DNA of 64,000 nucleotides from a virus, in IMG/VR virus record IMGVR_UViG_3300025138_000015. One strand, given 5' to 3'. The notes under the pieces are model-generated. The model was not told the DNA's origin. It ran no database searches and saw nothing but the letters and a program-made list of their open reading frames with translations. Within the stretch, counting starts at the first letter, position 1. Every line of letters begins with the position of its first letter. Of this stretch, positions 1-15,714 are shown piece after piece. A program made the translations under genes and the position numbers.

Positions 1-230
1 TCTTTCTCTTTTGAGATTGTGATGTCTTTCTTATCAAATCCAGCTAATGCAAGTTCGATACTGAAGTTCTCTGCATCGTGTTTTACAATATTGTAAGGTG
101 GATAGTTTGTATTAGTCGGTGACTGATTAGCCCTTTCTAATAGTTGAAGAGTTCTGTCGAACCCGATTGCGAATGGGAATGATTTCCCGAAATTGAAGAC
201 ATCGAAGTCTCCGAGCTGTTTACTTGTCAT
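1..230 (-). CDS. hsp20: Small heat shock protein Hsp20/IbpA family (runs off window start)
   Basis: Manual translation MTSKQLGDFDVFNFGKSFPFAIGFDRTL...NYPPYNIVKHDAENFSIELALAGFDKKDI; GGAG SD upstream; not in ORF track. Confidence 0.92.
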   Translation of the reverse strand, partial: MTSKQLGDFDVFNFGKSFPFAIGFDRTLQLLERANQSPTNTNYPPYNIVKHDAENFSIELALAGFDKKDITISKEK

Positions 231-288
231 AGTTTTCTCCTTTATTAAGCAAGTTATGTTATGTAACCTCTAATGAGCATTACAATGG

Positions 289-338
289 TATTTATAACAC
301 CATATACCTATTATAAGGTCTTTTTCTGAAATTTCAAG
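289..338 (-). promoter_or_regulatory. Tandem promoters for hsp20: TTGAAA-N16-TATAAT plus T4 late box TATAAATA (289-296)
   Basis: Minus strand cTTGAAAtttcagaaaaagacctTATAATaggtatatggtgtTATAAATA. Confidence 0.6.
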
Positions 339-939
339 CGGTTTTTTGTAATTTATGACATCTTTTTGATGCTTTGTTTTTGACACTGTTATTATTTAAT
401 ACAACTATAGCCATAAGAGTATTGACATCTCTCATGTCTTCTTGTGTCATTACTGGTTGTTTCATTTCAAGAGTGACTACTGGATAAAGAATAAGAAACT
501 TTCTTACACCCATTTTCATTACTGAGGGTCTTTCACCAAAGATAGGATTTGCTTCATAAACACAATCGTATTTGAGTCCTTTATATGTGGTATACATATC
601 AAGGAATTGAAGTGTTATAAATGTAGTCCACTGAAAAGTGGATACTGGTTCATATAGTGTAAATTGTGACTTTCTCAGATTTACCTTTGACGAGAATTCT
701 GTCGACTTCAGTGAATGTTCTAGCAGGACACTGGAGATATGTTTCTTCTGATAACAACAAGTCCACCCCATTATAATTTCTCGTTTGGCCTTCGAGTCTA
801 GCACCAAGGTTGACGGCATCTCCAATGACGGAATAGTCAAATCTAAGTTCGCTACCCATGTTTCCGACAATACATTCTCCTGTGCTAATGCCAATACCGA
901 CATTGATAGGAGGGAGATTGAGAGGAGAAAGTTCTTCAT
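334..939 (-). CDS. Exported/membrane hypothetical protein with DUF5658-like C-terminal motif; 5' half overlaps the cyclase gene
   Basis: LQFLDMYTTYKGL...YEANPIFG motif; signal-peptide-like MKNFLLSISLLSMSVLALA start at 939 with AAGGAA upstream. Confidence 0.55.
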   Translation of the reverse strand: MKNFLLSISLLSMSVLALAQENVLSETWVANLDLTIPSLEMPSTLVLDSKAKREIIMGWTCCYQKKHISSVLLEHSLKSTEFSSKVNLRKSQFTLYEPVSTFQWTTFITLQFLDMYTTYKGLKYDCVYEANPIFGERPSVMKMGVRKFLILYPVVTLEMKQPVMTQEDMRDVNTLMAIVVLNNNSVKNKASKRCHKLQKTA

Positions 940-2491
940 TAAGTTCCTTGGTTGCAATTAATATTTCTTCTGCAGACTTTACTGCCAACTCGGCATGATT
1001 TGGACAATTGAGAGGAGCATTCCAGAAGGACATAATACAGTCCCCCATATACTTATCAATAGTTCCAGAATTATTTAGAATTATTTTAGTCTGAACATCT
1101 AAGAATCTATTAATTAAATTTACCAATCCCTCTGGGTCATCATTGTTCTTAAAAGTCTCGCTTATGGGAGTAAATCCACATATGTCCATGAACATGAAGG
1201 TCATCTCTCGCCTTTCACCACCTAGTCTCAATTTACTAGGGTCTTTTTGTAGTTCTTCAACCATGTCGGGAGATAAATATTTTTGGAACTGCTTCTTGAT
1301 TTGTTGTTTTTCTTGGTATGTAATATAGTATTTGTTAAACGAGGCATGTCCAAATATCAACAAGGAGCTTACTGATGAAAAGAAAGTATCGAAAAGAACG
1401 AGTTGAGAAGTCCACAAATAATAACCCCCACCCAGCTGAAGTGCAACTAGTGTTAGACTCATTATCGCCGCAAGAACTGTGGAAAGTTTGTAGACCATCA
1501 ACAATATCATTAAAAGACTTAACGCCAGAAGAACAATCTCGAGCTGTTCAAGATAGTAGGATTGTTGTATTCGAGTGTCTTGCAAGACGGTTTGGATTAG
1601 GTTCGCTTGCACTTCATGGGGATACATTACACCCATTGGGGTTGAAACTGGATTATTCAGACCTTCTGCAGTTAGACCCCATATCAGAATCTTATTATTA
1701 AGACCTGATTCAGGTAAGTCTACAGCAGAGATTCTCTGAAAGGTATTCCAGTATGAAATCATTACATCACCTGTAGGTGTTGTAGATATGGGTGGGTTTC
1801 TTCCCATTCTCACCCATTCTACACCTAGTTCAGGTGTGACTTTTAACTGATAAGATTTTTGGTCAAAGAATGCACGAAGAGTTTCTAGTGCAACTGAAGG
1901 ATATACTTGTTCATTTGCATAGACTAATAGTGGTGCAGAACGAACTGTTCCGTCAAAGTTCGGTGTTCCCGTAATCGGTGGAGTCGAAGATGACACACCA
2001 ACACCGTAAGTATTGTCTCTAAGTATGGGAATTGGTGATACTATCCCACTGTAATTCCATATAAAGTCTTTTGCCTCTGCACCACCTAGTGTGGAAGTTC
2101 CCACAAAAGGTGCAACTCCTGAATCTTTTTGTGGCGAAGGGGCAGAGGATAAAATTGAAAGTCTGTTTATTAATCCTTCGGCGAATAGTGCATCTTCGTT
2201 AGGGGTTCGGTCATTTTCACTAAACACCATACTAAAAACATGAGTATTACTATAATGAGAATCAAGCATAAGTTGACTGTAATTACCACGAGGTAAGGGA
2301 TACTGACCAAGAGTCTCCAAAGTTTTCTCATCAATGTCGACCAAAACGATGTCGTTAACATAAAATTCTCCTTTTTGTTGATGCAGTGTATCAAACCATG
2401 ACCACTGTATGTTCTCAACAATGTATGGTGACCATATCTTTAACCCTACTAGTAATGATATGCTTACTAGAACTGATTTCCAACTAAACAT
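650..2491 (-). CDS. CHASE2-domain class III adenylate/guanylate cyclase
   Basis: N-terminal TM, IVLVDIDEKTL...YPLPR CHASE2 signature, three TMs, FMDICGFT, DKYMGDCIM, GIGISTG, DYSVIGDAVNLGARLE. Confidence 0.93.
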   Translation of the reverse strand: MFSWKSVLVSISLLVGLKIWSPYIVENIQWSWFDTLHQQKGEFYVNDIVLVDIDEKTLETLGQYPLPRGNYSQLMLDSHYSNTHVFSMVFSENDRTPNEDALFAEGLINRLSILSSAPSPQKDSGVAPFVGTSTLGGAEAKDFIWNYSGIVSPIPILRDNTYGVGVSSSTPPITGTPNFDGTVRSAPLLVYANEQVYPSVALETLRAFFDQKSYQLKVTPELGVEWVRMGRNPPISTTPTGDVMISYWNTFQRISAVDLPESGLNNKILIWGLTAEGLNNPVSTPMGVMYPHEVQANLIQTVLQDTRIQQSYYLEQLEIVLLALSLLMILLMVYKLSTVLAAIMSLTLVALQLGGGYYLWTSQLVLFDTFFSSVSSLLIFGHASFNKYYITYQEKQQIKKQFQKYLSPDMVEELQKDPSKLRLGGERREMTFMFMDICGFTPISETFKNNDDPEGLVNLINRFLDVQTKIILNNSGTIDKYMGDCIMSFWNAPLNCPNHAELAVKSAEEILIATKELNEELSPLNLPPINVGIGISTGECIVGNMGSELRFDYSVIGDAVNLGARLEGQTRNYNGVDLLLSEETYLQCPARTFTEVDRILVKGKSEKVTIYTI

Positions 2492-2624
2492 AGAATAAGT
2501 AGATTGCACCACCTATTAAAACTGTTGCTAGAATTATGCGAAATACTTTCATCCAAAATTTCTTTCTTTCACTTTTTCTGTAGTCATTGACCATATCAAC
2601 GACTCTTTGTGGATAATAACTCAT
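2484..2624 (-). CDS. Small single-TM protein (46 aa)
   Basis: Manual translation MSYYPQRVVDMVNDYRKSERKKFWMKVFRIILATVLIGGAIYLFYV; fills the gap with overlapping start/stop codons. Confidence 0.6.
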   Translation of the reverse strand: MSYYPQRVVDMVNDYRKSERKKFWMKVFRIILATVLIGGAIYLFYV

Positions 2625-2899
2625 GAAAATTTCTTTTGTATTTTTTTATAGATGTAGTATATAGAGAGCCCATAAGTTGCAAGGACTGTCATTGTAAAAC
2701 CAATGTAAACTAGTTCTATTGGTGTAAGGAAGAGAACTTGCCAAACAAAATCACCTGCAGCTTCGACATCTCCTAATTCAAGTTCTGATTCGAGTTCATC
2801 GTCCCACTCGATAGGCTGTGTACAAATCTGATTATCATCCATATGTGAACCACTCATTGTTGTGTTATCGATACTGAACAACCGCCAACTGTTTGACAA
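2621..2899 (-). CDS. Small membrane protein (true start probably downstream, near 2843-2857)
   Basis: Acidic N-terminal region, hydrophobic segment, basic tail; in operon. Confidence 0.55.
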   Translation of the reverse strand: MSNSWRLFSIDNTTMSGSHMDDNQICTQPIEWDDELESELELGDVEAAGDFVWQVLFLTPIELVYIGFTMTVLATYGLSIYYIYKKIQKKFS

Positions 2900-3513
2900 T
2901 TCTGAGTAAGATTATAAGACTTATTACTAGTACCTTCTTGCAACAGATTAAATGTTGTTGGGTATGCACCAGTTAATGTTATTTGTGAAGTGTGGGCACC
3001 AGAACCTCTCTGCATAATACTTGTATCTGAACCTGAAGAAGAACCATAATAGTATGTGTGGTTGTATTTTGTTCCTGCACCTTCTTGCCACAATTCGTGG
3101 TCAACATTACTTGCATGTATGTCTAAGTTATGTGTATGAGAACCATTCTGATAGATATCAACATCATTACTATTACCCCTTATGTGCCTACCATATGTTG
3201 CACCATCATACTGTATTACTGCTTCGTTATTGCCTGTGCCATCGACATCACCACCCCAAGCTTTACCTGAACCCCAATATGAAACCCAAGAAATACTATT
3301 TCCTGAACCGTTTTGTTGAAAGTTAAATGTATTGTTTGCATGGTCAAAGGAGAAGTTTACTGTATTATCTGAACCTATTTGTGTGACATTAATATTTGCA
3401 TTGTCTCCACCACCGACTTGTTCAATATGAACATGATTATCACCAGCGAAAACCATAGGGGTCAATAAGACCCCTAAAGTAAATTTCAATAATGATTTAG
3501 TTATATAATCCAT
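2854..3513 (-). CDS. Curlin-repeat protein (CsgA/CsgB-like)
   Basis: Signal peptide, then repeated N-x-x-x-I-x-Q-x-G-x-x-N units (NHVHIEQVGG, NINVTQIGSDN, DVDIYQNG); C-terminal CxxxxxC. Confidence 0.82.
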   Translation of the reverse strand: MDYITKSLLKFTLGVLLTPMVFAGDNHVHIEQVGGGDNANINVTQIGSDNTVNFSFDHANNTFNFQQNGSGNSISWVSYWGSGKAWGGDVDGTGNNEAVIQYDGATYGRHIRGNSNDVDIYQNGSHTHNLDIHASNVDHELWQEGAGTKYNHTYYYGSSSGSDTSIMQRGSGAHTSQITLTGAYPTTFNLLQEGTSNKSYNLTQNCQTVGGCSVSITQQ

Positions 3514-3728
3514 AGTAATATCATCGTTAAGAAAACCCCTTTACTAAATGCCAACCAATACATATGGTAGTCATCAAGTCTAACAGACTTCTGAAACCCA
3601 ACTAATTGGGATTCATGCCATTCACGGAGTTGTGATAACATATTTATCATACGACCTCCTCTTTTTGTGTTGTCGTAGTAGTATTTAGTTAACTTGGTTG
3701 ATGTAAATGAAGATTTCATCTCCACCAT
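3501..3728 (-). CDS. Small membrane protein (likely start MINMLSQ at 3650)
   Basis: GGAGG SD before the internal ATG; hydrophobic C-terminus. Confidence 0.55.
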   Translation of the reverse strand: MVEMKSSFTSTKLTKYYYDNTKRGGRMINMLSQLREWHESQLVGFQKSVRLDDYHMYWLAFSKGVFLTMILLWII

Positions 3729-4845
3729 TTACTGTTATAACACCTTCATAACTTGGTGTAATTGTGTTTAATTGTACTGATGCACCTGGTTGAAATGTTA
3801 AAGTTATCTTTCCTTCAACCTCTCTGTAAAATACAAGACCACCATCTTCAATAAAAACATTGTATTGTGAATCTTTATTCTTACCAAGTGAAGCACCTTT
3901 TATGTTAAAGTCTGAACTTCCACCCGAAGATGATTGTCTATCTCCCAAAGCCTTTGTGGTTTTAATTAGTTCTTCAACAACATCTAACATGTCTACTAAG
4001 AAGTCTGCATCTAAGAAGTCAATATCAATAGAACTATATCTTGCATCATAGTCTGGGTCATTTGCATAATCATCGTAGTCTTTTTCCAACTCATTGAACT
4101 CTAAGAAATCTACATCTAACATTCCTTGGTCTTCATTGTTATCATCTTGAGCTGCTTCTTGTACTGCCTCTGCAACTGCCGGTGGTGGTGCAACAATAAA
4201 CATATTATCTATCTGATTAACTGATAGATTTGATATCGTCACAGGACTTGTTGGTGGACTATCTAAACTTGAAACCATTGTTGCCTGAAATGCCTTATCT
4301 AAGACTATTCGACCACCTTCATTTATGACTGTTATTTCTCCTGATGAATCACCAAATCTATCAGGAAGTAGAACTATCAAACTCCTTCCGAGTTCGTCAA
4401 TGGTTGTTGTAAAATCTGTACCACGGATTGCTATTTGTGCCGTAGGTGTTCGTATGTCTATGTTAGACTTTTTAATTTTTTGACCATTTCCAGAAGCAAA
4501 TCGTGCCGTGCCTTGCATCATTCTTAAAGACATCTTCGATAAACTTGGATTTGGGTCGTAGTATACTTCGTCTATGTATACTTGTGTGTGTTCTGTAAGT
4601 GCAAGTTCCTCATCATCAAGGAACTCAATAAGCATTCTGCCGTTGCCTGTTATTGCCTCATCATAGAGAACAATTCCTGTGCCAACATCATTACCTATTT
4701 CAGAATTGTTTCTAAGAACAGAACCAATTCCTGTGGATTCTACAATATCTCCAATGGAGTCTGCGTGAACAGACCCCATGAAGAGTAAACTACTAAGAAT
4801 CAGTAGATGTGTCTTTCTGATTGATTTGTATAATTGAATTATCAC
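3685..4845 (-). CDS. FecR-domain exported protein
   Basis: Signal peptide; IEFLDDEELALTEHT, LRMMQGTARF, IRTPTAQIAIRGTDF FecR motifs; acidic C-terminal extension. Confidence 0.85.
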   Translation of the reverse strand: MIIQLYKSIRKTHLLILSSLLFMGSVHADSIGDIVESTGIGSVLRNNSEIGNDVGTGIVLYDEAITGNGRMLIEFLDDEELALTEHTQVYIDEVYYDPNPSLSKMSLRMMQGTARFASGNGQKIKKSNIDIRTPTAQIAIRGTDFTTTIDELGRSLIVLLPDRFGDSSGEITVINEGGRIVLDKAFQATMVSSLDSPPTSPVTISNLSVNQIDNMFIVAPPPAVAEAVQEAAQDDNNEDQGMLDVDFLEFNELEKDYDDYANDPDYDARYSSIDIDFLDADFLVDMLDVVEELIKTTKALGDRQSSSGGSSDFNIKGASLGKNKDSQYNVFIEDGGLVFYREVEGKITLTFQPGASVQLNTITPSYEGVITVNGGDEIFIYINQVN

Positions 4846-5521
4846 TTGTGATGTCCAATGTTATCTCACCTTTACAAGTAGAAATACCTGTTGGGCATGT
4901 TCCACTTAACTGATTGATGTCTACATCTGCAGAATCACCATTCAATTCAAAAGTAATATTGTGATAGGCACCATCTTTCTGTAATGTGTTGATGTTATTT
5001 GAACCACCTGTGATGTCAAAGTTCCATGTGACATCATCTGATTCTACATCTACATCAAATACATTTGAGTTTCCTATTACAATTAAATCAAAGTCTAACC
5101 TCTCTGCTTGAGCAACTGAACCTTGGTCAAAGTTCATATTATTAGAATCACCAGTTATATCTACCAACATATTGGAAGAATCTGATGAACCAGATGAACC
5201 AATTAACCAATCAAACACATTACTATCACCGTTAAATTCTAGTGTGTATGATGATGAATCGGCAATCAATGTTCCATAAAGTAAGTTCTCGTTACCTAAC
5301 TGGTCGATGTTAAAAACCAACGAAGTACCTGTGATAGGCATGGCAGCTGAACTACTTGAAAAGTCATTCAGTCCCATTTTGTTACCATAACCGACTTGGT
5401 CGACATATAATCTTAATGTATCACCAACTTGTGTTATGTTAATTTCGTTGTCATCGTCTGCAGCTGCAAACAGAAAAGGTACAGTCAAAAATAAACTTAG
5501 CGCTAATATTATTTTTTTCAT
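4793..5521 (-). CDS. Curlin-repeat protein (CsgA/CsgB-like)
   Basis: MKKIILALSLFL signal peptide; repeats NEINITQVGD, YVDQVGYGN, NIDQLGNEN, DITGDSN. Confidence 0.8.
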   Translation of the reverse strand: MKKIILALSLFLTVPFLFAAADDDNEINITQVGDTLRLYVDQVGYGNKMGLNDFSSSSAAMPITGTSLVFNIDQLGNENLLYGTLIADSSSYTLEFNGDSNVFDWLIGSSGSSDSSNMLVDITGDSNNMNFDQGSVAQAERLDFDLIVIGNSNVFDVDVESDDVTWNFDITGGSNNINTLQKDGAYHNITFELNGDSADVDINQLSGTCPTGISTCKGEITLDITSDNSIIQINQKDTSTDS

Positions 5522-6432
5522 TTTTCTTTTCCTTCTATTTCCCAAAAACCTCTATCGTGTCCTTGGTTTATTAATTCGAACACTGCCGCTTCAACTGCAG
5601 ACCGTGTCGCGTATGTCACACTCTCATTATTTCCCACTCCGTCCTCGAATTCGATGAGTTGTGTTCCTTGTTCTATAAATCGGAATACATCACCTCCTCC
5701 ACCATAAGAAAGGATAGTCTTTCTTGTTTGGACATTCAATAATACTTCACCAGTTAGAACTGATACTGCTCGTAATGAAACAGTCACAGCATCCTTTCTA
5801 TACATCCTACTAACACCAACTCCAAGAGTTCTGGCACCTCGGCCACCACTCTCTAAATTGGTATCATACCCAATAATTCCACCCTCGATAATCATTCCTG
5901 CAAATAAAAGTGGTGCAACACCTGGAGAATCTTCTCCTTTTTTCTTTGCAATATCATCTCTGGCAGACCTAATAATTTGTCTCTCTCTAACAAGGTGGTC
6001 TAAACCTTGTCTTTCAACCACTCTAAACCATGTGTCTCCACCAGCAGTCTTTAATGCATCAATTAATAACTCAGTTCCACCTTGTGAGACTGCAGTTGAA
6101 AATGATGCAAGGTTATCAACTGCCTTTCTTTGTCCTGTTTTGTCTGAAAAATTATAGACTGCAACTACTGGTTTATTTTTTGCAGGTGGTAATTTAAGTA
6201 GTTCTATATAACTTGGAAGTTTAACTGCTTCTGGTTCATCAACACAAATGAAAGGCATTGCTCTCTCAAAAGTTCTACCCATTGCTCTGGCATAGTTAAC
6301 CAAATCATGGTCGTATTCATCACCCCATGTTTCTGGATTACACTCTTGTGGTTCGTTTGAAAATCTAGGAACCGATGCGCAAGAGGTAAGTATTATTGCT
6401 AAACTAACCGCCGTCAGTAGTCGAACCGTCAC
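5518..6432 (-). CDS. csgG: Curli secretion channel lipoprotein CsgG
   Basis: Lipobox LTSC; VAVYNFSDKTGQRK, FSTAVSQG, WFRVVERQGL, EGGIIGYD, VTVSLRAVSVLTGEVL; likely GTG start at 6432. Confidence 0.95.
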   Translation of the reverse strand: MTVRLLTAVSLAIILTSCASVPRFSNEPQECNPETWGDEYDHDLVNYARAMGRTFERAMPFICVDEPEAVKLPSYIELLKLPPAKNKPVVAVYNFSDKTGQRKAVDNLASFSTAVSQGGTELLIDALKTAGGDTWFRVVERQGLDHLVRERQIIRSARDDIAKKKGEDSPGVAPLLFAGMIIEGGIIGYDTNLESGGRGARTLGVGVSRMYRKDAVTVSLRAVSVLTGEVLLNVQTRKTILSYGGGGDVFRFIEQGTQLIEFEDGVGNNESVTYATRSAVEAAVFELINQGHDRGFWEIEGKEK

Positions 6433-6907
6433 CTGTATCACTCCCGAAGTTACCACTTCCAATTGGTATCTCTAAAATTGTTTCTGTTCCGTCACTATCA
6501 ATTATTGTCATTCTAATAAATTCTGTTCCATCTAAATTTGTTATAACTTCATATGTGACTGTTGAACCTTCTAATACGAATGAACCGAATCTAACTGGAT
6601 TATCGTTGTTGAACATATTTTCAACCAACTGTTTTGCCATTTGGGCATAGATTCTCGATTCTAAATTTCTAATAAATTTTGCTAAGGTTGTATTGTTCTC
6701 TTCTCTCTCGGCTGCTTTTCTTGCCGCTTCTAGTGCCTCTTCAATTGCCTTTTTTCTGGAGAACTCTTGGTTTTCCACGGTCAAATAATGAGATGCAGTT
6801 CCTACTCCTGAGAAACTAGGATTTTTAAACTTATGTACTATCTCTGTTGCAGATAGTGAAAATGATAATAGAAGTGCGATGAAACACATAGGTAAAATTA
6901 TTTTCAT
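6404..6907 (-). CDS. csgF: Curli assembly component CsgF
   Basis: Signal peptide then EIVHKFKNPSFSG; FIRNLESRIYAQMAKQL; adjacent to csgG. Confidence 0.9.
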   Translation of the reverse strand: MKIILPMCFIALLLSFSLSATEIVHKFKNPSFSGVGTASHYLTVENQEFSRKKAIEEALEAARKAAEREENNTTLAKFIRNLESRIYAQMAKQLVENMFNNDNPVRFGSFVLEGSTVTYEVITNLDGTEFIRMTIIDSDGTETILEIPIGSGNFGSDTGDGSTTDGG

Positions 6908-7161
6908 TTTTCCTTTCTCCTTTTCTTTTCGTTTTCTTTATATTCTAAGACCACATCAACCTTTTGTTGAAGTCTTATAAGGTCTTGGTCTAACATACGC
7001 ACTTGGTCAATTAATCTAATCAATGCCATATGTTGTTTTTCAATTTCAGGTTCTAGTTCGTTACCTACAAACCACCAGATGTAGTATATAAAATAACCTA
7101 GACCAACCATCATTACGATTGGGAATCCGTATTCGGATATTAATTGGGCAACTTCGGACAT
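6904..7161 (-). CDS. Small TM plus coiled-coil protein
   Basis: LISEYGFPI followed by TM and heptads; resembles the next ORF. Confidence 0.7.
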   Translation of the reverse strand: MSEVAQLISEYGFPIVMMVGLGYFIYYIWWFVGNELEPEIEKQHMALIRLIDQVRMLDQDLIRLQQKVDVVLEYKENEKKRRKEK

Positions 7162-7457
7162 TAATCCCTCCGTGCGTCAATCTTATCGTCTTCTATAAAG
7201 TTCTCTGCTCTGGCAATTCTCTCTATATCGGGTCTTAGTTCTAACGCTGAACTTACTAACATGTCTATCTTAATCATTTCGTTAGACATTGTTCTTGCAC
7301 GATTTTCTAGTGACTTACAGAACATGGTTAATGTTTTTATATCGTCTACAACACCTTCTAGTATCTGTTTTATAACAGTGAATATAAAGAAACCCATTAC
7401 TATACTTCCAGCAATAGGGGCACCAACTTCACTTATTAATCCAAAGATATCTTCCAT
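7161..7457 (-). CDS. Small TM plus coiled-coil protein, first gene of the curli operon
   Basis: LISEVGAPI followed by TM and heptads. Confidence 0.7.
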   Translation of the reverse strand: MEDIFGLISEVGAPIAGSIVMGFFIFTVIKQILEGVVDDIKTLTMFCKSLENRARTMSNEMIKIDMLVSSALELRPDIERIARAENFIEDDKIDARRD

Positions 7458-7462
7458 GCCAT

Positions 7463-7470
7463 TATTTATA
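7463..7470 (-). promoter_or_regulatory. T4-type late promoter of the curli/cyclase operon
   Basis: TATAAATA 5 nt before ATG at 7457, just downstream of a terminator. Confidence 0.8.
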
Positions 7471-7490
7471 CTTTTTGATTTCTCTTGGCG

Positions 7491-7519
7491 AAAAAAAAGG
7501 GCACCTTTCAGTACCCTTT
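7491..7519 (-). terminator. Rho-independent terminator
   Basis: AAAGGGTAC-TGAAAG-GTGCCCTTTTTTTT on the minus strand. Confidence 0.85.
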
Positions 7520-7538
7520 AGTGACTTAGAAGTCTATT

Positions 7539-7784
7539 TTATTTCATTTGAGAATGAATAGATTTTATCACTTCTGCTTTTGAACCCGAAACTTTTACCT
7601 TTAGGTTTTCCTTATCTGCAAGTTGAATCAACTGAACTTTAGTTAGTTTCTTTAACTCCGATTGTGAAGGAACTTTCTTTGCAGGTTTCTTTGCAACTGG
7701 TTTTACAGGTGTATCATTTGTAGACTTAGCTAAAAAATGATATGCTAGTAAAAGACCCACGATGCCTAGTATTACATATTCCAT
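7539..7784 (-). CDS. Membrane-anchored protein with Rho-N/SAP-like helical motif
   Basis: N-terminal TM, Lys/Pro linker, ELKKLTKVQLIQLA...SKAEVIKSI. Confidence 0.6.
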   Translation of the reverse strand: MEYVILGIVGLLLAYHFLAKSTNDTPVKPVAKKPAKKVPSQSELKKLTKVQLIQLADKENLKVKVSGSKAEVIKSIHSQMK

Positions 7785-7809
7785 AATTATACCTCTTGTT
7801 TATGTATAC

Positions 7810-8016
7810 TTATTTATCCAACAAAGGATTCTTATCCTTGGCCTTGCCTACTGCTAGTGCAAGAACTTCCAGATACTTGTATACTTTTGCCCAAAGTTTA
7901 TCGTCTGCTGGTGTTGGTGTCAAAGCGACAATAACACTACAGATAGAGATAACCACTGGTATTACCATTAATATATTCCAAATTCCCATAATAAAGTTTG
8001 CGATTGCTGTTAGCAT
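7810..8016 (-). CDS. Small membrane protein, possibly holin-like
   Basis: Hydrophobic helix followed by ALTPTPADD; GGAGG SD. Confidence 0.55.
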   Translation of the reverse strand: MLTAIANFIMGIWNILMVIPVVISICSVIVALTPTPADDKLWAKVYKYLEVLALAVGKAKDKNPLLDK

Positions 8017-8050
8017 AATCCGCCTCCTTATTTGATTTAATCAGGTTTAT

Positions 8051-8476
8051 TTAGGTTTTATTACTACCGATTGAGTATTTTGTTGTTAATTTCCATTGCA
8101 CTTTCTCTTTGAAAGGTATGATTTTAACTTGTGAAAGTGGTGCAGTTGGTTCTTTTATCTTATCATTATCTATAACTTTGATAAGACTCCACTGTTGTAA
8201 TAGATTACAGATAGTATTTCTTCTGCCAATATCATTTTCATCTATGTTGGTTGATTTACCGTCAAGAGCAAACAGTTCTTTGAAATGTACAATGTAATAC
8301 TTGCCTCTCTTATGTAAGATATGACATGATTGAAAAAGTTCTTGGTCTCTGCGAGATGCAACACCAATTCTGGAAAGTGTTTCTCGGATTTTGAGAAAAT
8401 CGTCCTCTTTCTCAAAGGAGATTTCTACTAATTTTTCTACTAAAGGGTCTATTTCATTCATTATTTTTACCACCAA
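8051..8476 (-). CDS. regA: Translational repressor RegA
   Basis: DFLKIRETLSRIGVAS, LFQSCHILHKRGKYYIVHFKELFALDG. Confidence 0.97.
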   Translation of the reverse strand: MVVKIMNEIDPLVEKLVEISFEKEDDFLKIRETLSRIGVASRRDQELFQSCHILHKRGKYYIVHFKELFALDGKSTNIDENDIGRRNTICNLLQQWSLIKVIDNDKIKEPTAPLSQVKIIPFKEKVQWKLTTKYSIGSNKT

Positions 8477-8846
8477 GTCGCATTCTATTCTTCAACTCAC
8501 GATACTGTTTATCAGATAAGAGGGATGCATAATCTTTTGCTTCTCTCGTTGATATCTTATAATACTGTTTAATTACATCGAGTTTCTTAGAGACATATGG
8601 TTTACTCCATTTGGAGAACCTTTGTCTTCTTCTTAGGGTATTTAGAAAAAATACATATTGAAGACGACCCTCAGTCGAATGCCTGATGTTCATTTCGTTT
8701 GTCAAGAAGATGCAATCTTCATGGTAAGATAATGATTTATTTATTAGGAACGGTTGATATGATTTCTCTTCGATATCATCAACCATGATATCTTTTTTGT
8801 CGTAAGAGACCGACTTGACAAAATCAAATGGATTGCGTTTTGTCAT
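8454..8846 (-). CDS. gp62: Clamp loader small subunit
   Basis: YQPFLINKSLS, NEMN, RRRQRFSKW; upstream of regA. Confidence 0.92.
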   Translation of the reverse strand: MTKRNPFDFVKSVSYDKKDIMVDDIEEKSYQPFLINKSLSYHEDCIFLTNEMNIRHSTEGRLQYVFFLNTLRRRQRFSKWSKPYVSKKLDVIKQYYKISTREAKDYASLLSDKQYRELKNRMRLGGKNNE

Positions 8847-8849
8847 TGT

Positions 8850-9122
8850 TTAAGTGTGCTTTATAAAGGAATCTATTAGGTCTTGGCCAGTCAATTGTAC
8901 ACCCATGATAATAACTTGGTCATTATCTAAAGTTCTTCTGATTGAACCATCATTGAATTCGATATCAACAACATTTCTAGTTCCTTCTGCAGTGTCTTCT
9001 GGTCTATCATCGTACCAAATACTATCTAAGGAGTGTGCATGAATTTGTCTAACGCCTTTAGCCCATATTTCTGCTTCTATTTTATTTCGTTGTTCTTCAA
9101 CTCTTGAATCATATTGTGTCAT
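8850..9122 (-). CDS. Hypothetical protein
   Basis: ORF with SD, in operon. Confidence 0.65.
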   Translation of the reverse strand: MTQYDSRVEEQRNKIEAEIWAKGVRQIHAHSLDSIWYDDRPEDTAEGTRNVVDIEFNDGSIRRTLDNDQVIIMGVQLTGQDLIDSFIKHT

Positions 9123-9223
9123 TTATTTCTCCCTTTTAAAAACTGTTTATCTGCATTTCGTTGTAATGATTTTTCTACTTGATAATCTAACCATCTAAAA
9201 AACCATTGTCTTAACTTTCCCAT
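9119..9223 (-). CDS. Small hypothetical protein (34 aa)
   Basis: Manual translation MGKLRQWFFRWLDYQVEKSLQRNADKQFLKGRNK; overlaps both neighbours' start/stop codons. Confidence 0.55.
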   Translation of the reverse strand: MGKLRQWFFRWLDYQVEKSLQRNADKQFLKGRNK

Positions 9224-9639
9224 TATGCCTCTTTGTTTGGATTCCACATTACTAAGTTCTTAGTTCTTAGTCTGTTTGCAACAATAGTATATCTGTTTTG
9301 TTCGTCTTTCCATTCTTTTAACCATTTGTGTCCGTCTCTCTCTGCATCTATAAAGATTGCATTAGTGAATGCCATTGGTAATAGTATTGCAACATGAATG
9401 ATTATACTTATTAAAGTATTGTAGTTAAACATACCTAGATAGTTTGCAGCTAGAAATCCAAAGAACACCGACCATATAGTAAACAACACTAACATAAAGT
9501 AAGTTTGTAAACTTGGGTCAGGTATATACTTTAATGGATTGTATCTGACATCCATAACTCTTCTCCACCCATTCACAAGACTCATTACAGTTCTTCTAAA
9601 TAAACTAGGTTTTTTCATCATTGGTTCTATTTTACTCAT
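9223..9639 (-). CDS. Two-TM membrane hypothetical protein
   Basis: MDVRYNPLKYIPD motif followed by two TM helices. Confidence 0.7.
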   Translation of the reverse strand: MSKIEPMMKKPSLFRRTVMSLVNGWRRVMDVRYNPLKYIPDPSLQTYFMLVLFTIWSVFFGFLAANYLGMFNYNTLISIIIHVAILLPMAFTNAIFIDAERDGHKWLKEWKDEQNRYTIVANRLRTKNLVMWNPNKEA

Positions 9640-9735
9640 TTCATTCTCCTGTGTGATTTCTCACAAACTCTTTTACCACATGAAGACCAACTGATGCCCA
9701 TGTAATTACTATTAAACTCCATACTAATAACTCAA

Positions 9736-10677
9736 TCACTTAAACTGACACTCTGACATAATCTCGGTGAGACATGCAACAAAGTTTATCTCTGAATCCA
9801 TTGAGAATGCAGATTTGTATTGATAGTCTGCAATGATTAAAACACATGCAGGTATGGAACTAGGTTCTAATTTAGATTCAAGTGCATTGAAAACTTTTCT
9901 GTAAAGTGTATTGAAATCATTATCAGAATTCTGACCGACCCATTTTCTCATGTCTGACCATTTCTTATCTTTAAGCATGTTGATTAGTGGTGTAAGTTTC
10001 TCTTCTGATAATGTAGATAATAATCCACTATCGATAATACCACTTGCACCATATCTCTGAATTTCATTTAGACATCTTCTGAAGTCTGGAAAGAATTTCA
10101 TAATAAGTTCTGCAAGGACTTTATTGTCTGCTTGAATACCTTCTGCATCACAAATCTCGTTGCATCTTTTCATCATTTGTTGTGCAAGGACTGGTTTGTC
10201 TGAAGGTTTGATTAAGAAATCAATTACTGTTGTTCGTGAATGTAAAGGTGGAATAATCCTGTTCTTGTAATTACAAGTAAAGATAAATCTACAATTAGAT
10301 GAGAACTCTTCTATAAAGTTTCTCAATGCAGGTTGCACTGAATCAGCAGATATGTAATCTGCCTCATCTAGTATCACAACTTTAGGTCCACCTGAAAGTG
10401 ATACTGTTGATGCAAAGTTTTTGATTTTAGTCCTGAGTGTATCAATCAATCTGCCTTCGTCTGAACCGTTTATAACAATGAAGTCTGCACCAAGTTCATT
10501 ACATAATGCCTTTGCAATGGTTGTTTTACCACAACCTGCAGAACCACATAACATAAGATTTGGTATTTGTTCTTGTTTAACAAACTCTCTGAAAGTAGAT
10601 TTGATTGATTCAGGAAGAATCGTGTCCTCAATATTTTGAGGACGATATTTTTCTACAAATAAAAATTCTTGATTCAT
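9736..10677 (-). CDS. gp44: Clamp loader large subunit (AAA+)
   Basis: VEKYRP, GSAGCGKTT, ILDEAD, LHSR. Confidence 0.97.
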   Translation of the reverse strand: MNQEFLFVEKYRPQNIEDTILPESIKSTFREFVKQEQIPNLMLCGSAGCGKTTIAKALCNELGADFIVINGSDEGRLIDTLRTKIKNFASTVSLSGGPKVVILDEADYISADSVQPALRNFIEEFSSNCRFIFTCNYKNRIIPPLHSRTTVIDFLIKPSDKPVLAQQMMKRCNEICDAEGIQADNKVLAELIMKFFPDFRRCLNEIQRYGASGIIDSGLLSTLSEEKLTPLINMLKDKKWSDMRKWVGQNSDNDFNTLYRKVFNALESKLEPSSIPACVLIIADYQYKSAFSMDSEINFVACLTEIMSECQFK

Positions 10678-10798
10678 AATTAGATGTTAAAACCCCTCCG
10701 AATTAACCGTTGTAAGAACTCCTAGCTGATGAGACATCTTACATCCCGAGTATAGAGCTGAGACTAATTTAACCCTATTCACACTATTATATATATGT

Positions 10799-11467
10799 CT
10801 ATTGACCATATTTTGAATCAGGTTCAAGTGCAATAAAGTATTCTAACTCTATATCTTTGTTATTGAAATGAGAAATACCTTTAGAAGATACTGAAACTGC
10901 ATAGTTTCCTTCTAATACTTTCAGATTATCAATCTTGAAATTGAAAGTAAAGGGTGTTCCGTCACCTGTGCCTACAGTTCTACTGAATGAATTAGATGTT
11001 GTATTCTTTTTATCAGTCACTAACAATGTCATTGTAGTTCCGTCTGATTTAAGAATCAAATCATTCACTCCTAGAACACTAGCAGCTTTGTTTAAATCAT
11101 TTAGAAGTGACGATGAAACATCAAAAGATACTTCTGCATCTGGCATTGTTATCATCTTTTCTGGTGTTGTTACCATTCCTTCACTTGCGTAGAAGTATGC
11201 CAATGCAGAATTTGTATCTGAGATTGTCACACTTGCATCACCGAATTGAAAGTCTGCATCTTCTAATAGAGAAGTCGCACCTAAGAATTCAGGTAGATTA
11301 TAGATTGAGAAATCCTGTGGGAATTCTTCTTCTATTGTTGCAACTGCCAGAATGTTTTTCATATTTGAAATTGTCTGCAGTTGTTTTCCACTGGTAACTT
11401 TAATACCAGAATTTATTGTTGAGAAATTCTTTAGAACATCCCTCGTATCATTACTTATTTTCATCAC
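10799..11467 (-). CDS. gp45: Sliding clamp
   Basis: LKNFSTIN, FSIYNLPEFL, YFIALE. Confidence 0.95.
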   Translation of the reverse strand: MMKISNDTRDVLKNFSTINSGIKVTSGKQLQTISNMKNILAVATIEEEFPQDFSIYNLPEFLGATSLLEDADFQFGDASVTISDTNSALAYFYASEGMVTTPEKMITMPDAEVSFDVSSSLLNDLNKAASVLGVNDLILKSDGTTMTLLVTDKKNTTSNSFSRTVGTGDGTPFTFNFKIDNLKVLEGNYAVSVSSKGISHFNNKDIELEYFIALEPDSKYGQ

Positions 11468-11763
11468 TTGTTAGCCTCCTTATTTGCTTTGTCGTGAACA
11501 TGTAGCATGAACAAAGCATAATGTAAAACCTTCAACAGGTCTGCTCTATTCTTCCCACCTTTTTTACCATATCGTTGTGCATATTTCATTATGTTTCCGA
11601 TACAGAACCCCTCACCATGTCCAGAATCTATAATAAACTCTGTAGATTGGTATTTGTTAAGAGAGTAATGTTGGTCATAAGTCTTATCGATATAAGAGGC
11701 AAGTTCCTTTAGAGAACTGTCCTCGTTATATTTGTAGTCGATTGTAGTCTTTTTACCAAACAT
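11464..11763 (-). CDS. DUF3310-like protein (related to T7 gp1.7 nucleotide kinase)
   Basis: QHYS, GFCIGNIMKYAQRYGKK, DLLKVLHYA; likely start at ATG 11763. Confidence 0.75.
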   Translation of the reverse strand: MFGKKTTIDYKYNEDSSLKELASYIDKTYDQHYSLNKYQSTEFIIDSGHGEGFCIGNIMKYAQRYGKKGGKNRADLLKVLHYALFMLHVHDKANKEANK

Positions 11764-11764
11764 A

Positions 11765-12988
11765 TTAATCATTATACTCTGAAGTCTCTGATTCGTCAAT
11801 GGGGTTTTCCTCAGTTAGAGAAACACCCTCATCAATTTTAGTGTAGAGGTCAAGAATAGACATTCTAGTCTCTTCATCAAACCTTGAAATACACATTTCA
11901 ATAGACTTCATTCTATCACCAAACATTCTGAATGCATTGACAATGTGAACAAGTCTTCTTGTTGTGATAACATCATCGATAGCACCCTCGTAGAAAGTTT
12001 TTCTGATAATGTCTGCCCAATCTACCAACTTGGTAGTGAACTCTGAATCAACTGCACCAGTTAGTTCCATTTCTTTTTCAAGAATTTTCTTCTCAACTGA
12101 CACTGGTGGATATTCTTGTTGCATAGTGATTGCAAATCTTTCTAACATTGCCTCATTCATGATTTGAGTTCCGATGAACTTGCCATCTTCTGAACCTTGA
12201 CCTTTAGTATTTGCAGTTGCAAGAACTGTGAAACCTGGTGCAGGTGTTACCCACTCACCAGTTTTCTTGATTAGGTAACCTTTACCTTCAAGAACTGATT
12301 GTAGACACATCAACTTGTTTGAACCAAGGTCAACTTCATCTAATAGAAGAACTGAACCTTTTCTCATTGCTTTGACAACCGGACCTTCTCTGAAGGAAAT
12401 GTTGCCATTAACAAGTGTGTGACCACCCATTAAATCATCTTCATCAGTTTCAATGGTCACATTGACTCTGAAAAGTTCCCTCTTTAAAGAGGCACATACT
12501 TGTTCAATCATTAATGTTTTACCATTACCTGAAAGACCAGTCACAAATACTGGAAAGAATATTCCAGATTTGATTATGTTTTTGACATCTTTAAAATGTC
12601 CGAAAGGGACATAATTAGTCATTTTCTCTGGAACAATTTTGACATTGTCTTCGAGTATATTAACCGTCTCTGATTGAGCTGCAACAGGCATGTTGCTAAC
12701 TGGCATAGATGCCATTGGCATGACAGGTTGTGGTTTCACTGGCATTGGAATGACATTGGTCATTAATGCAGATAAATCAAATACCGATGCATCAGAATTT
12801 CTGAATGGGTATTTGGTTGATTTGACCCAATATGGGACAGCACCAACATTCTCTAAATCTTCTTTAGAAAATGCAGTTTGGTCTGGATAGACCGATTGTA
12901 AAGTCGCGATAAACTCTTGTCTATCAGGACTCATTCTGAAATCTTTACCATTTACTGATACAGATTCCGTCATAGTTGAATAACTCAT
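11765..12988 (-). CDS. cobS: CobS-like MoxR-family AAA+ ATPase
   Basis: GLSGNGKT, LLLDEVD, ATANTKG, NEAMLERF. Confidence 0.9.
   Translation of the reverse strand: MSYSTMTESVSVNGKDFRMSPDRQEFIATLQSVYPDQTAFSKEDLENVGAVPYWVKSTKYPFRNSDASVFDLSALMTNVIPMPVKPQPVMPMASMPVSNMPVAAQSETVNILEDNVKIVPEKMTNYVPFGHFKDVKNIIKSGIFFPVFVTGLSGNGKTLMIEQVCASLKRELFRVNVTIETDEDDLMGGHTLVNGNISFREGPVVKAMRKGSVLLLDEVDLGSNKLMCLQSVLEGKGYLIKKTGEWVTPAPGFTVLATANTKGQGSEDGKFIGTQIMNEAMLERFAITMQQEYPPVSVEKKILEKEMELTGAVDSEFTTKLVDWADIIRKTFYEGAIDDVITTRRLVHIVNAFRMFGDRMKSIEMCISRFDEETRMSILDLYTKIDEGVSLTEENPIDESETSEYND
11771..11799 (-). promoter_or_regulatory. Sigma70-type promoter
   Basis: TTGACG-N17-TATAAT, 7 nt before ATG at 11763. Confidence 0.75.
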
Positions 12989-13029
12989 ATAGTCTCCTTT
13001 TCTTTGTTATTATTTCTCATCATTTGGAT

Positions 13030-13059
13030 ATGGTATCAAAAAGTGATACGCATTGGCAA
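13030..13059 (-). promoter_or_regulatory. Conserved phage promoter, copy 1
   Basis: TTGCCA-atgcgtatCACTTTTTga-TACCAT-N6-ATG. Confidence 0.8.
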
Positions 13060-13063
13060 CCGC

Positions 13064-13333
13064 CTACTCGCATATTCTTAGAATCCTCTCTAAGTCTTTT
13101 TCAATTGATATCATACCTTTTACTTTTTTAGAGTATGTTTCCATTTCTCCGTTGTTAACCCAAAATCTGAATGCTTTGCATTCTACCTTTTCTTCGGCAC
13201 ATTGTTTAAATCTTGGACAATTAAACTTGACGCAAGGACTTGGTCCTACATCCATAACTGCATCTGCAAATTTGGAATACGATGCATCGTAATTGTGGTA
13301 ATATGCCTGGTCTACTTGTAATGGTTCTCTCAT
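13064..13333 (-). CDS. Cys-rich hypothetical protein
   Basis: PCVKFNC...C...ECKAF. Confidence 0.65.
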   Translation of the reverse strand: MREPLQVDQAYYHNYDASYSKFADAVMDVGPSPCVKFNCPRFKQCAEEKVECKAFRFWVNNGEMETYSKKVKGMISIEKDLERILRICE

Positions 13334-15714
13334 TATGCTATCTCCTTGATAAATTCATTTGTTAAAAATCTTGATGTTGTTTTAGACTTTTGGTTTTTCT
13401 TAAAGGCACTTGTTAGTTTACCTTTCTTCGCACCGACCAAGTCTTCATTAAGTTCGTCTTCACCAGAAACAACTAAAGTAGTTGAACCAGTGGTGAATAA
13501 TTTTCCGTACCCTTTGGTTTCCCAAACAGTACCAGTTTTTCTAGTTTGTAACCAAGCAGAATTATCTGAATAATCCATCTGCTGTCCTATAGAATCCATG
13601 AGTTGCATGAAGTCTTGTTTTCTGCCACAAACAAAGTAGCCAGTTGTTATAACTCCTGTCTCTGATTTCAACCACTCTAAAAGATTGGTAGTTTTTTCAA
13701 AGTCACTTCTTCCGTATCTGTCTTCTTCATAGTCATAAACTTTTCCAGAATATGGGTCAACTAGTTTTCTTTTCTTAGTAGTTCTCCAAGAATCTTCATC
13801 ACCAACTTGTTCTTCAATTTGTTTGTTTTCTGCTTCATCAGGATAAAGAATGTCTGCTCTATGACTGTAACCATCGGTGACAATCGTTAGAATTGATTTC
13901 TCGATTCCGTATGCAGTGTTGAACTCTGGAATTAATTTTCTCATACCAACTAAACATTGGTCAAGAGGAGTACCACCTAAACCATATCCGTTTGGGTGAT
14001 TGTATCTTGTGTTCCAGTAGTAACCATTTGGGTCAATATACTCAATACCTTCAAACCACTCGTTGAATGCTTTTGCTTTGTCTTGAAAATTTCTTTGATG
14101 ATAACTTCCGACATTATCAGTATAGAATTCATTATAAAGACCACCAAGTATTGTCAATGCATCTAAGTATTCTTTTGATTTCATTTCGTTAGAGAATATT
14201 TCTACAAGTCTGATATTACCTTCTTCTCTGTCCCACCCATATCTTGAATTGTGCATGATTTGGTCGGTGAATAAGTATACTCTGAAAGGTATCTCAACCT
14301 TCTTACAGAACATTGCAAGAATCAAAGCTTGTTCTAATAAATCCATAACTTCACCAGAAATAGAACCAGACCAATCAAGTAGAACTTGAACACCATGATT
14401 CTTTCCGTCTGGAAGATATGTCATTCTTTTGAAAACATCATCAACAATCTGATACTTAGCAAGTCTATTCATATCTAACTTACCAGTTTTACCAGTGAAG
14501 GCATGTGCTTGAGCAAGAGCAGCTTGTTTCATTTCAAACTCTTTTGCCATATGCATAACTATTCTTTTGTTTTTATCAACCAGATTCCTAGAAGTTCTCT
14601 CTGCCATTTTTTGAGTCTTAGAATTATCAACATCATCAAAATCTGTTCCTAATGCTTCACCCTTTTTGTCTTTACCTTCGAAGAAGTTTTTCCAATCTTG
14701 TCTAACTCTCTTATAAGGATAAACAATATCTGTAATCTCTTTTGATTTCATTTTCTCTTTAAGATTAATATGAGTCATAATCACATTACTATCTGAAATG
14801 AATTGTTCTTCATTGTTATGTGCATTGTGTTCAGTGATAGACTCTCTAGCACCATCTTTTGAATCGTAATTCTCTGCATCATAACCATGACCACCTTTTT
14901 TACCAGTGTCTTTTCTTTCGTCTGACTCTTCTTCTTCACCTTCTTCTTCACCAGAATCTTCAGTGTCGTCTACATCTGGAAGATTGTCTTCGTCTGAATC
15001 TTCTTCAGAGTCCTCATAATCATCATCGTATGAATCTGAACCATCTTCGAAGTCTTCATCGTTTTGATTTTCTTCTTCTTCATCTGACTCGTCTTCATCA
15101 CCTACATCAAACATTTGAGGAACCATTTTTTCATCTTCATCAGTTCTTGTTTCGTTTTCTTTAGACCATTCGTAAATTGCAGTGGCACATTCTTCGACTT
15201 CTTCCCAAGTCTGACAAGACATTGCCCAATCTAAAAATTCTTGTTCCTTTTCAGTAAGTTTGATGTTGACTCTCTGACCACATTTAGTAATCAAATTGAT
15301 TTTATCAATCAGTGAAGTTTCTTGTATGTTTCTTGTATTAACACCGAAGAAATCGATGTCCATTAATTCGTTGTATGCTTTAAAGAATGATTTTCTAAGA
15401 CCAGGATAAGTCTCTTTAATCATTCTCTCAATTCTGACATCTTCAACAACATTCAAATACCCTTTAAGAGTTTTGTTTTTTGTCACTGCAGAATGAACAC
15501 CTTCATAAGGTGTATTCAATGCATGTGAAACTTCGTGACCCATAAACAAGTCATAAAGTTCTGGTGAAATGTCTTCTTTAAGAATAGGACAACAAAGTAT
15601 TCTATTCTTCAAATCGAAGTATGCAGTAGGAACTTTCCTATGCACGATTGTTAAGTTTTCCTTTGCAAGTAATTTTGCAAGGTTGTCTTTTTGTATTAGT
15701 AGTTTCTCAGTCAT
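13333..15714 (-). CDS. CobT-like protein: metallopeptidase-like N-domain, acidic linker, VWA domain
   Basis: GHEVSH, NVVEDVRIE, long D/E tract, MIDAS LLDWSGS, GGTPL, IVTDG; near cobS. Confidence 0.85.
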   Translation of the reverse strand: MTEKLLIQKDNLAKLLAKENLTIVHRKVPTAYFDLKNRILCCPILKEDISPELYDLFMGHEVSHALNTPYEGVHSAVTKNKTLKGYLNVVEDVRIERMIKETYPGLRKSFFKAYNELMDIDFFGVNTRNIQETSLIDKINLITKCGQRVNIKLTEKEQEFLDWAMSCQTWEEVEECATAIYEWSKENETRTDEDEKMVPQMFDVGDEDESDEEEENQNDEDFEDGSDSYDDDYEDSEEDSDEDNLPDVDDTEDSGEEEGEEEESDERKDTGKKGGHGYDAENYDSKDGARESITEHNAHNNEEQFISDSNVIMTHINLKEKMKSKEITDIVYPYKRVRQDWKNFFEGKDKKGEALGTDFDDVDNSKTQKMAERTSRNLVDKNKRIVMHMAKEFEMKQAALAQAHAFTGKTGKLDMNRLAKYQIVDDVFKRMTYLPDGKNHGVQVLLDWSGSISGEVMDLLEQALILAMFCKKVEIPFRVYLFTDQIMHNSRYGWDREEGNIRLVEIFSNEMKSKEYLDALTILGGLYNEFYTDNVGSYHQRNFQDKAKAFNEWFEGIEYIDPNGYYWNTRYNHPNGYGLGGTPLDQCLVGMRKLIPEFNTAYGIEKSILTIVTDGYSHRADILYPDEAENKQIEEQVGDEDSWRTTKKRKLVDPYSGKVYDYEEDRYGRSDFEKTTNLLEWLKSETGVITTGYFVCGRKQDFMQLMDSIGQQMDYSDNSAWLQTRKTGTVWETKGYGKLFTTGSTTLVVSGEDELNEDLVGAKKGKLTSAFKKNQKSKTTSRFLTNEFIKEIA

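Follow-up and report, generated by a model that had tools for sequence, protein, structure and literature searches.

Curli-type secretion genes have been described before in phages of marine bacteria. Zaragoza-Solas et al. reported csgF and csgG in pelagimyophages in 2020 (PMC7029224), and Buchholz et al. in 2022 discussed a pore or lysis role for phage Melnitz, naming neither FecR nor the cyclase (PMC9004378). Wittmers et al., also in 2022, reported the complete block from SAR11 myo- and podophages, its FecR, cyclase and 'histidine kinase' genes included, together with its expression and its global distribution, which took in all 65 GOV2.0 stations; FecR was treated there as an iron regulator and CHASE2 was not mentioned (PMC9599517). 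Here we analyse a block of this kind in the sequence of a T4-like marine phage, uncultured, from IMG/VR, record IMGVR_UViG_3300025138_000015. The window is the whole stretch of 64,000 nucleotides, whose coordinates are used throughout, and the block analysed lies at positions 334-7470 on the minus strand. A preliminary description, made from the sequence, had offered this late operon as a possible trans-envelope signalling system of the phage that ties curli secretion to a FecR protein and a CHASE2 nucleotidyl cyclase. The gene block including FecR and the cyclase is already published (PMC9599517), so it is not new; the window holds a divergent member of it with clade-specific additions.

In our reading, to which we give a probability of roughly 45%, the block joins a curli-type secretion set to a sensor pair made up of FecR and a CHASE2 adenylate cyclase, FecR being the hinge. 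All of the genes named in the preliminary description were found, on the minus strand and in the order it gave; the Pfam matches of the two curlins and the DUF5658-like protein fall below threshold. From 5' to 3' they encode two small membrane paralogs, CsgF, CsgG, a first curlin-like protein, FecR, a tiny transmembrane protein, a second curlin-like protein, two tiny transmembrane proteins, the CHASE2 cyclase and the DUF5658-like protein. As had also been noted, no CsgC, CsgD or CsgE family was matched among the operon open reading frames (ORFs) scanned against Pfam. The genes of the secretion set and of the sensor pair are as follows.

6404-6907, minus strand: CsgF (PF10614, E 1e-14; phrog_35372), with a signal peptide and then an N-terminal FKNPSFSG motif
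5518-6462, minus strand: CsgG lipoprotein (PF03783, E 5e-54; lipobox LTSC), exact start uncertain
4793-5545, minus strand: curlin-like secreted beta-solenoid protein 1, 250 residues, likely start 5521 (Curlin_rpt E 0.004, below threshold)
3685-4845, minus strand: exported FecR-fold protein, 386 residues (PF04773, E 2e-8)
2854-3513, minus strand: curlin-like secreted protein 2, 219 residues (Curlin_rpt E 0.07, below threshold)
650-2512, minus strand: CHASE2/class III adenylate cyclase, 620 residues (CHASE2 PF05226, E 9e-31, residues 23-335; Guanylate_cyc PF00211, E 1e-15, residues 436-618)

A scan of IMG/VR with the cyclase as query gave 291 loci, 80 of which were kept, and to these we added nine phage contigs binned in metagenome-assembled genomes (MAGs). 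Every related locus with enough flank in this set shares one gene content and gene order, and phages HTVC008M (7562-13807) and Melnitz (gp99-104), whose cyclases share 40% and 34% identity with the one in the window, have the same core order. The arrangement is not a product of chance, since the order recurs in all relatives with flank and in HTVC008M and Melnitz. FecR and cyclase genes co-occur with csg genes in the phage relatives, and the link that the preliminary description drew between them holds to that extent. The MAG-binned contigs carry no host information, being misbinned in MAGs of six different phyla, and in a Megablast search the region matched none of the phage records. In a second sample, of 14 loci seeded with HTVC008M-type CsgG, FecR lies directly after the curlin-like gene in 13 of 13 loci, and the cyclase is present in seven and absent from three of the ten informative CsgG-FecR phage loci. 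A non-T4 phage type that lacks the cyclase (L182, 8132-10824; L183, 2-3478) encodes a small membrane protein, CsgF, CsgG, a curlin-like protein and FecR, with tail-fibre genes upstream in L182 and, downstream in L183, a 157-residue protein followed by phage lysozyme.

CsgG matches the E. coli CsgG structures at E 6e-50; its constriction loop retains the Phe but has other residues in place of the Asn and Tyr. CsgF has no sequence match in the PDB. By comparison with structures 6l7a and 6si7, its FKNPSFSG motif is the CsgG-binding peptide that enters the barrel. When aligned, the two curlin-like proteins prove homologous (hhalign 99.2%, E 1e-19); they have about nine rungs and two conserved C-terminal Cys. 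The model of curlin-like protein 1 (predicted local distance difference test, pLDDT, 82; predicted template modelling score, pTM, 0.75) is a beta-solenoid or beta-helix, with structural matches (Z up to 16.8) to SufD-type helices, adhesins and two-partner-secretion domains. Foldseek with this model returned nothing at E <= 0.001, and solved CsgA was not among its structural matches. A profile of the same protein found 881 homologues among 1.84 billion representatives, and of 62 full-length homologues 31 match Curlin_rpt (best E 1e-10), other families being matched by two or fewer each. From these profile matches we read the two repeat proteins as a divergent branch of curlin-repeat proteins, their amyloid formation being putative.

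The model of the FecR protein (pLDDT 74) begins with a signal-peptide helix (residues 2-22) and a beta domain (about 30-217); a linker that is acidic and of low confidence (about 220-310) then leads to a small beta domain at the C-terminus (325-386). The periplasmic signalling domain of PupR (6ovk, residues 111-249) is matched by residues 59-217 of the model (Z 15.3, root-mean-square deviation 2.5 over 135 residues), which also superpose on BDI_1681; at the level of sequence, the FecR profile gave no meaningful match in the PDB. The signal-peptide-like helix runs directly into the beta domain, and the protein has neither a cytoplasmic anti-sigma domain nor a transmembrane anchor. More than 4,900 homologues of it were found. 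The dipeptide G142-T143 does not vary among 22 relatives; a conserved GT motif is the site at which FecR and FoxR cleave themselves (PMC8144685), and G142-T143 may be its equivalent. Residues 28-123 of the model also superpose, with a middling score, on the 76-residue surface-anchoring domain of a Marinomonas ice-binding adhesin (5ix9; Z 7.1, 73 residues, 23% identity).

This architecture bears on a proposal made in PMC7029224 and PMC9599517, that CsgG-CsgF without CsgE forms an ungated import pore that admits larger nutrients or cofactors to the periplasm, with FecR in an iron-related role. The lack of a CsgE family match in the operon agrees with such a pore. No extracytoplasmic function (ECF) sigma factor, TonB-dependent transducer or iron-uptake gene was found among the operon ORFs scanned, the FecR protein begins with a signal peptide and has no cytoplasmic anti-sigma part, and an import pore would leave the curlin-like proteins and the cyclase unexplained. 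We therefore hold this proposal to be highly improbable for the locus.

By hydropathy, the cyclase consists of a transmembrane helix, a periplasmic CHASE2 domain (about residues 33-318), a hydrophobic block and a cytoplasmic catalytic domain, and among solved structures it is closest to Cya2 and to 6fht, an adenylate cyclase engineered from Cya2. Residues D443, K487, D491, S561, N568 and R572 are invariant in 16 relatives. D443 and D491 are the metal-binding Asp pair, N568 and R572 the transition-state residues and K487 the purine-specifying position, which is Lys in 6fht and Glu in the guanylate cyclase Cya2 (2w01). Because Lys occupies this position, ATP is the predicted substrate, and cyclic AMP (cAMP) would be the product. 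PADLOC returned generic PycC catalytic-domain matches (best E 2e-24), which would fit a cyclase that takes part in cyclic-nucleotide defence or counter-defence, as in Pycsar. The PycC match is confined to the generic class III catalytic domain, the operon showed neither a Pycsar effector nor any other defence family, and the purine-specifying Lys and CHASE2 sensor domain fit a signalling adenylate cyclase; we regard a Pycsar-like role as extremely improbable.

FecR and CHASE2 genes are also paired in bacteria. Among 37 bacterial loci collected with the FecR profile, a CHASE2 cyclase lies directly downstream on the same strand in seven, and csgG or csgF is found in none of the 37. A TPR-like gene often precedes the bacterial FecR gene, and in the two FecR-CHASE2 loci examined for it GAF-HD or GAF-SpoIIE effectors follow the cyclase. 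When four genomes with a FecR-CHASE2 pair were searched for CsgG, three gave no match and the fourth a sub-threshold match. The TPR-FecR-CHASE2 arrangement is matched by a Campylobacterota CHASE2 cyclase cluster (PMC9239204), and in the cyaD1-smc02177 neighbourhood of Sinorhizobium meliloti a FecR-domain gene stands next to a CHASE2 cyclase (PMC5498481). Bona fide alphaproteobacterial csgF-csgG loci, most of which have curlin-like genes alongside, show FecR or CHASE2 within 9 kilobases (kb) in none of seven cases. Because these seven csg loci are without FecR and CHASE2, and the bacterial FecR-CHASE2 pairs are without csg genes, we interpret the phage block as a phage-specific fusion of two bacterial modules. 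We found the two modules joined solely in phages, which agrees with Wittmers et al. (PMC9599517).

The bacterial pairs also help to judge the possibility that the block is a fibre machine only. In that case surface curli-like fibres would serve aggregation ('sibling capture') or act as a superinfection shield, FecR would be a periplasmic secretion adaptor or chaperone that replaces CsgE, and the cyclase would be a separate, optional host-manipulating gene. Such fibres have been proposed by Wittmers et al. (PMC9599517) and Zaragoza-Solas et al. (PMC7029224), and the position of FecR after CsgG and the curlin-like gene in 13 of 13 loci, the three of ten loci without a cyclase, the missing CsgE family match and the conservation of two secreted curlin-repeat proteins are all consistent with them. 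That FecR and CHASE2 are paired in bacteria without curli genes makes it more likely that the two are each other's partners; in addition, the FecR fold is unrelated to any known CsgG gate, and clumping was not observed in Melnitz infections (PMC9004378). We consider a fibre machine alone unlikely, while giving it some weight.

On the reading that we prefer, the sensor fusion with FecR as hinge, the phage would add two joined modules to the host envelope late in infection. The first, of alphaproteobacterial type, would comprise the CsgG outer-membrane channel, the CsgF cap and two Sec-exported curlin-repeat beta-solenoid substrates, which would leave through CsgG. The second would be the exported FecR-fold protein and the inner-membrane CHASE2 adenylate cyclase, like the TPR-FecR-CHASE2 pairs of bacteria. 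FecR, always present with CsgG and curlin, would be read out by the cyclase where there is one; it may report a periplasmic condition that depends on the pore or on what the pore exports, or else a cue coming in by that route, and the CHASE2 domain would convert this report, through contact with FecR, into cAMP synthesis and so into a downstream effect. The block probably works as an envelope-to-cytoplasm sensor.

The trans-envelope signalling of the preliminary description is plausible, though unproven. Speaking for it are a late unit conserved as a whole, intact catalytic residues in the cyclase, an exported FecR protein with a PupR-like fold, the FecR-CHASE2 pairing in bacteria, and a precedent in S. 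meliloti, where the outer-membrane protein NsrA is needed together with CHASE2 cyclases (PMC7529298). The further claim that the state of a pore or fibre is the sensed cue is unsupported.

Several observations weigh against the reading. The contacts between FecR and CHASE2 and between FecR and the pore are putative, and the cyclase, as given above, is missing from three of ten loci. The structural match of FecR to PupR stops at PupR residue 249, and the matched stretch, 111-249, presumably excludes the STN subdomain that contacts the outer-membrane transducer. The Curlin_rpt (PF07012) scores of the two window proteins, 17.4 and 13.5 bits, lie under the cut-off of 20.7, and solved CsgA (8enq) was reached by profile at E 0.61, which is chance level. 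A FecR gene lies within 1.5 kb in only three of 30 alphaproteobacterial CHASE2 loci, these having short flanks, and in S. meliloti the FecR-domain neighbour smc02177 is dispensable for signal perception (PMC5498481). As to a receptor for the product, the cNMP_binding and GAF families were not found in five phage relatives that are 69-81% complete, and cNMP_binding occurs in just seven of 81 genomes of the Pelagibacterales (the SAR11 order).

CHASE2 proteins are also native to this order. One chromosomal CHASE2 protein was found in 25 of 80 Pelagibacterales genomes, and the best 12 are orthologues of a CHASE2-PP2C phosphatase. Seven of nine Pelagibacterales CHASE2 loci examined at 20 kb also have FecR-domain and TPR-like genes. 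We did not find a description of this native CHASE2-PP2C/FecR/TPR-like cassette (L160, 10034-14916; L161-L172; L187-L194) in the literature examined. One SAR11-order genome has a ShlB/FhaC gene close to its FecR-CHASE2 cassette and eight others do not, which leaves a general link of the cassette to two-partner secretion unconfirmed in that order.

A more far-reaching form of the sensor idea, and a long shot, is a phage-built, envelope-spanning sense organ. An outside cue, arriving via an ungated CsgG-CsgF pore or on surface solenoids, would pass through FecR to a CHASE2 protein and from there to a signal that sets lysis timing or exclusion. A superinfecting phage might be such a cue, as might substances set free when neighbouring cells lyse; an analogue is NsrA-CyaK of S. 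meliloti, which responds to a free ribosomal protein present in any cell extract. The CHASE2 partner might be the phage cyclase or, for cyclase-less phages, the host CHASE2-PP2C sensor.

Every gene at window positions 1-9700 lies on the minus strand, and the operon forms one tightly packed unit 3' of a terminator and a T4-type late promoter, with hsp20 after it, where the preliminary description had placed it. Its boundaries are the following.

7496-7519, minus strand: terminator-like hairpin then T8 (7519-7496), ending the upstream gene
7463-7470, minus strand: T4-type late promoter TATAAATA, motif end 5 nucleotides before the first ATG
3-296, minus strand: next late promoter TATAAATA (296-289) and hsp20 start, the downstream boundary

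There are 14 copies of TATAAATA in the window (sites 289-58823), 14 of 14 on the minus, coding strand, as against 7.0 +/- 2.8 copies in shuffled sequence with both strands summed, and none was found inside the operon, between 7470-7463 and 296-289. The label 'late' rests on the T4 consensus motif. A transcript from the promoter at 7470-7463 would carry almost no leader, the motif ending so close to the start codon. T4-like regA and clamp-loader genes lie upstream of the operon, and the identity of hsp20 was confirmed via a full-length orthologue. Most of the operon is matched at 90-99% identity by contigs assembled from RNA libraries, from four runs of a single study; these are not proof of transcription, because the contigs also cross the terminator and promoter and may derive from DNA carry-over. 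In one related locus (L014, 11874-13485) hsp20 is followed by a redoxin gene and a 370-residue protein near the threshold for Druantia DruA (E 3.7e-6, 26.8 bits against a cut-off of 27).

Five further genes of the operon encode small membrane proteins.

7161-7457, minus strand: small membrane protein A, 98 residues (phrog_18771, E 2e-24), with a single N-terminal transmembrane helix
6904-7161, minus strand: small membrane protein B, 85 residues, a paralog of A (phrog_18771, E 3.5e-25; hydropathy)
3501-3728, minus strand: tiny protein with a C-terminal transmembrane helix, probable start 3650 (49 residues), kept in most relatives
2621-2899, minus strand: small protein with an acidic N-terminus and a C-terminal transmembrane helix, found in part of the clade
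2484-2624, minus strand: 46-residue protein with one transmembrane helix (hydropathy; loci of relatives)

Proteins A and B each have an N-terminal transmembrane helix and a charged, heptad-like tail that looks by eye like a coiled coil. They match no Pfam family, and no HisKA or HATPase match was obtained at E values up to 10. The label 'histidine kinase' given to the genes at 6904-7457 (Wittmers et al. 2022, PMC9599517) is thus unsupported, the products being single-pass proteins of 85 and 98 residues without a kinase domain. Protein B has a faint match to a holin PHROG over residues 1-20 (phrog_4898, E 5e-5). The nearest named feature clusters for the small proteins are YvrJ and Holin_BhlA (BhlA-type holins; Holin_BhlA 0.85), which are leads only.

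Holin-like features of this kind would fit a lysis-timing device, as Buchholz et al. proposed for Melnitz (PMC9004378): CsgG-CsgF would be a gated pore, pinholin- or secretin-like, the small paralogs would act like holin and antiholin, and the sensor would set the time of lysis. The apparent late expression of the unit suits such a device, as do the 20-residue phrog_4898 match and the Holin_BhlA lead, and in the cyclase-less non-T4 phage the block ends one gene before lysozyme. The holin-like signals are, however, below any threshold. CsgG is an outer-membrane lipoprotein whereas holins act at the inner membrane, and two conserved secreted solenoid proteins would be left unexplained. We judge lysis timing to be quite unlikely as the function of the block.

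The last gene of the operon overlaps the cyclase gene.

334-957, minus strand: DUF5658-like membrane protein (DUF5658, E 2e-4, 22.4 bits, below the cut-off of 25.2)

The gene appears to begin within that of the cyclase, in its +1 frame, with a probable ATG at 939 and an overlap of about 100 codons, and the N-terminus of the product resembles a signal peptide that ends in Ala-x-Ala. In 69 of 69 distinct relatives no stop interrupts the +1 frame across the final 97-142 codons of the cyclase. Elsewhere in the cyclase gene a +1 stop comes every ~13 codons, and the same region has 4-14 stops in the cyclases of clades without the DUF5658-like gene. Synonymous-site diversity in the cyclase dips at codons 541-600, and also at codons 271-420, where no overlap is proposed; because of this second dip, the diversity test by itself is ambiguous for the overlap. 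We rejected the idea that the DUF5658-like protein is a split-off tail of the cyclase, as the longer cyclases of the HTVC008M/Melnitz clades contain nothing homologous to its C-terminal part. At cyclase codons 271-420 (window positions about 1250-1700, the end of CHASE2 and the transmembrane block) the synonymous-codon diversity is 0.23-0.31, compared with 0.40-0.52 elsewhere, in 56 relatives, and a 108-residue antisense ORF lies within this low-diversity stretch at 1375-1701 on the plus strand.

The block is very common in the ocean, and it supplies hosts with a secretion system they lack. Should FecR and the cyclase prove to be an envelope-sensor pair borrowed from bacteria and not an 'iron regulator', then cAMP, FecR-CHASE2 binding and Gly-Thr self-cleavage take priority, and the question is raised of what reads cAMP in hosts that are mostly without CRP-type receptors.

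Compared with known systems, the secretion set shares with the CsgBAC/CsgDEFG system of Escherichia coli the CsgG lipoprotein channel, CsgF and, putatively, curlin-repeat substrates. It differs in gene order, which is of the alphaproteobacterial csgF-csgG-curlin type, in its weak Curlin_rpt matches and in having no CsgC, CsgD or CsgE match. With FecA-FecR-FecI and PupB-PupR signalling the phage protein has in common the periplasmic FecR-domain fold, and its conserved Gly-Thr dipeptide resembles their self-cleavage motif; unlike those systems it has no anti-sigma domain or membrane anchor, and its operon encodes no sigma factor or TonB-dependent transducer. The cyclase resembles CHASE2 receptor adenylate cyclases of the CyaD1/CyaK type in having CHASE2 between transmembrane segments, a class III catalytic domain and the catalytic residues.

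In the sensor logic that we propose, the closest parallel is NsrA with CyaK, CyaD1 and CyaD2 of S. meliloti, which is the only experimental precedent. NsrA is a predicted beta-barrel receptor, unlike the CsgG secretion channel. In that system CHASE2 adenylate cyclases act jointly with an outer-membrane protein to relay a signal from outside into the cell as cAMP (PMC7529298). The cAMP is read there by Clr, and no such reader was found for the phage block. Bacterial TPR-FecR-CHASE2 cassettes likewise encode an exported FecR-domain protein beside an inner-membrane CHASE2 sensor with a cytoplasmic output; they have a TPR-like partner, lack csg genes and in many cases include GAF effectors or a phosphodiesterase. 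The phage operon, among whose scanned ORFs neither TPR nor GAF was matched, instead interleaves the pair with curli genes, FecR and CHASE2 sharing a strand and being separated by small genes over about 1.2 kb.

The viral type VIII secretion (curli) region of pelagiphages is the system that the locus resembles in gene set and order, in its setting in T4-like marine phages and in the lack of CsgE. Adjacent csgF and csgG genes are followed by a curlin-repeat gene, and FecR is followed by a second curlin-like gene and the cyclase, as in that region. To this the clade represented by the window adds three tiny membrane proteins and the overlapping DUF5658-like gene, and hsp20 follows the block.

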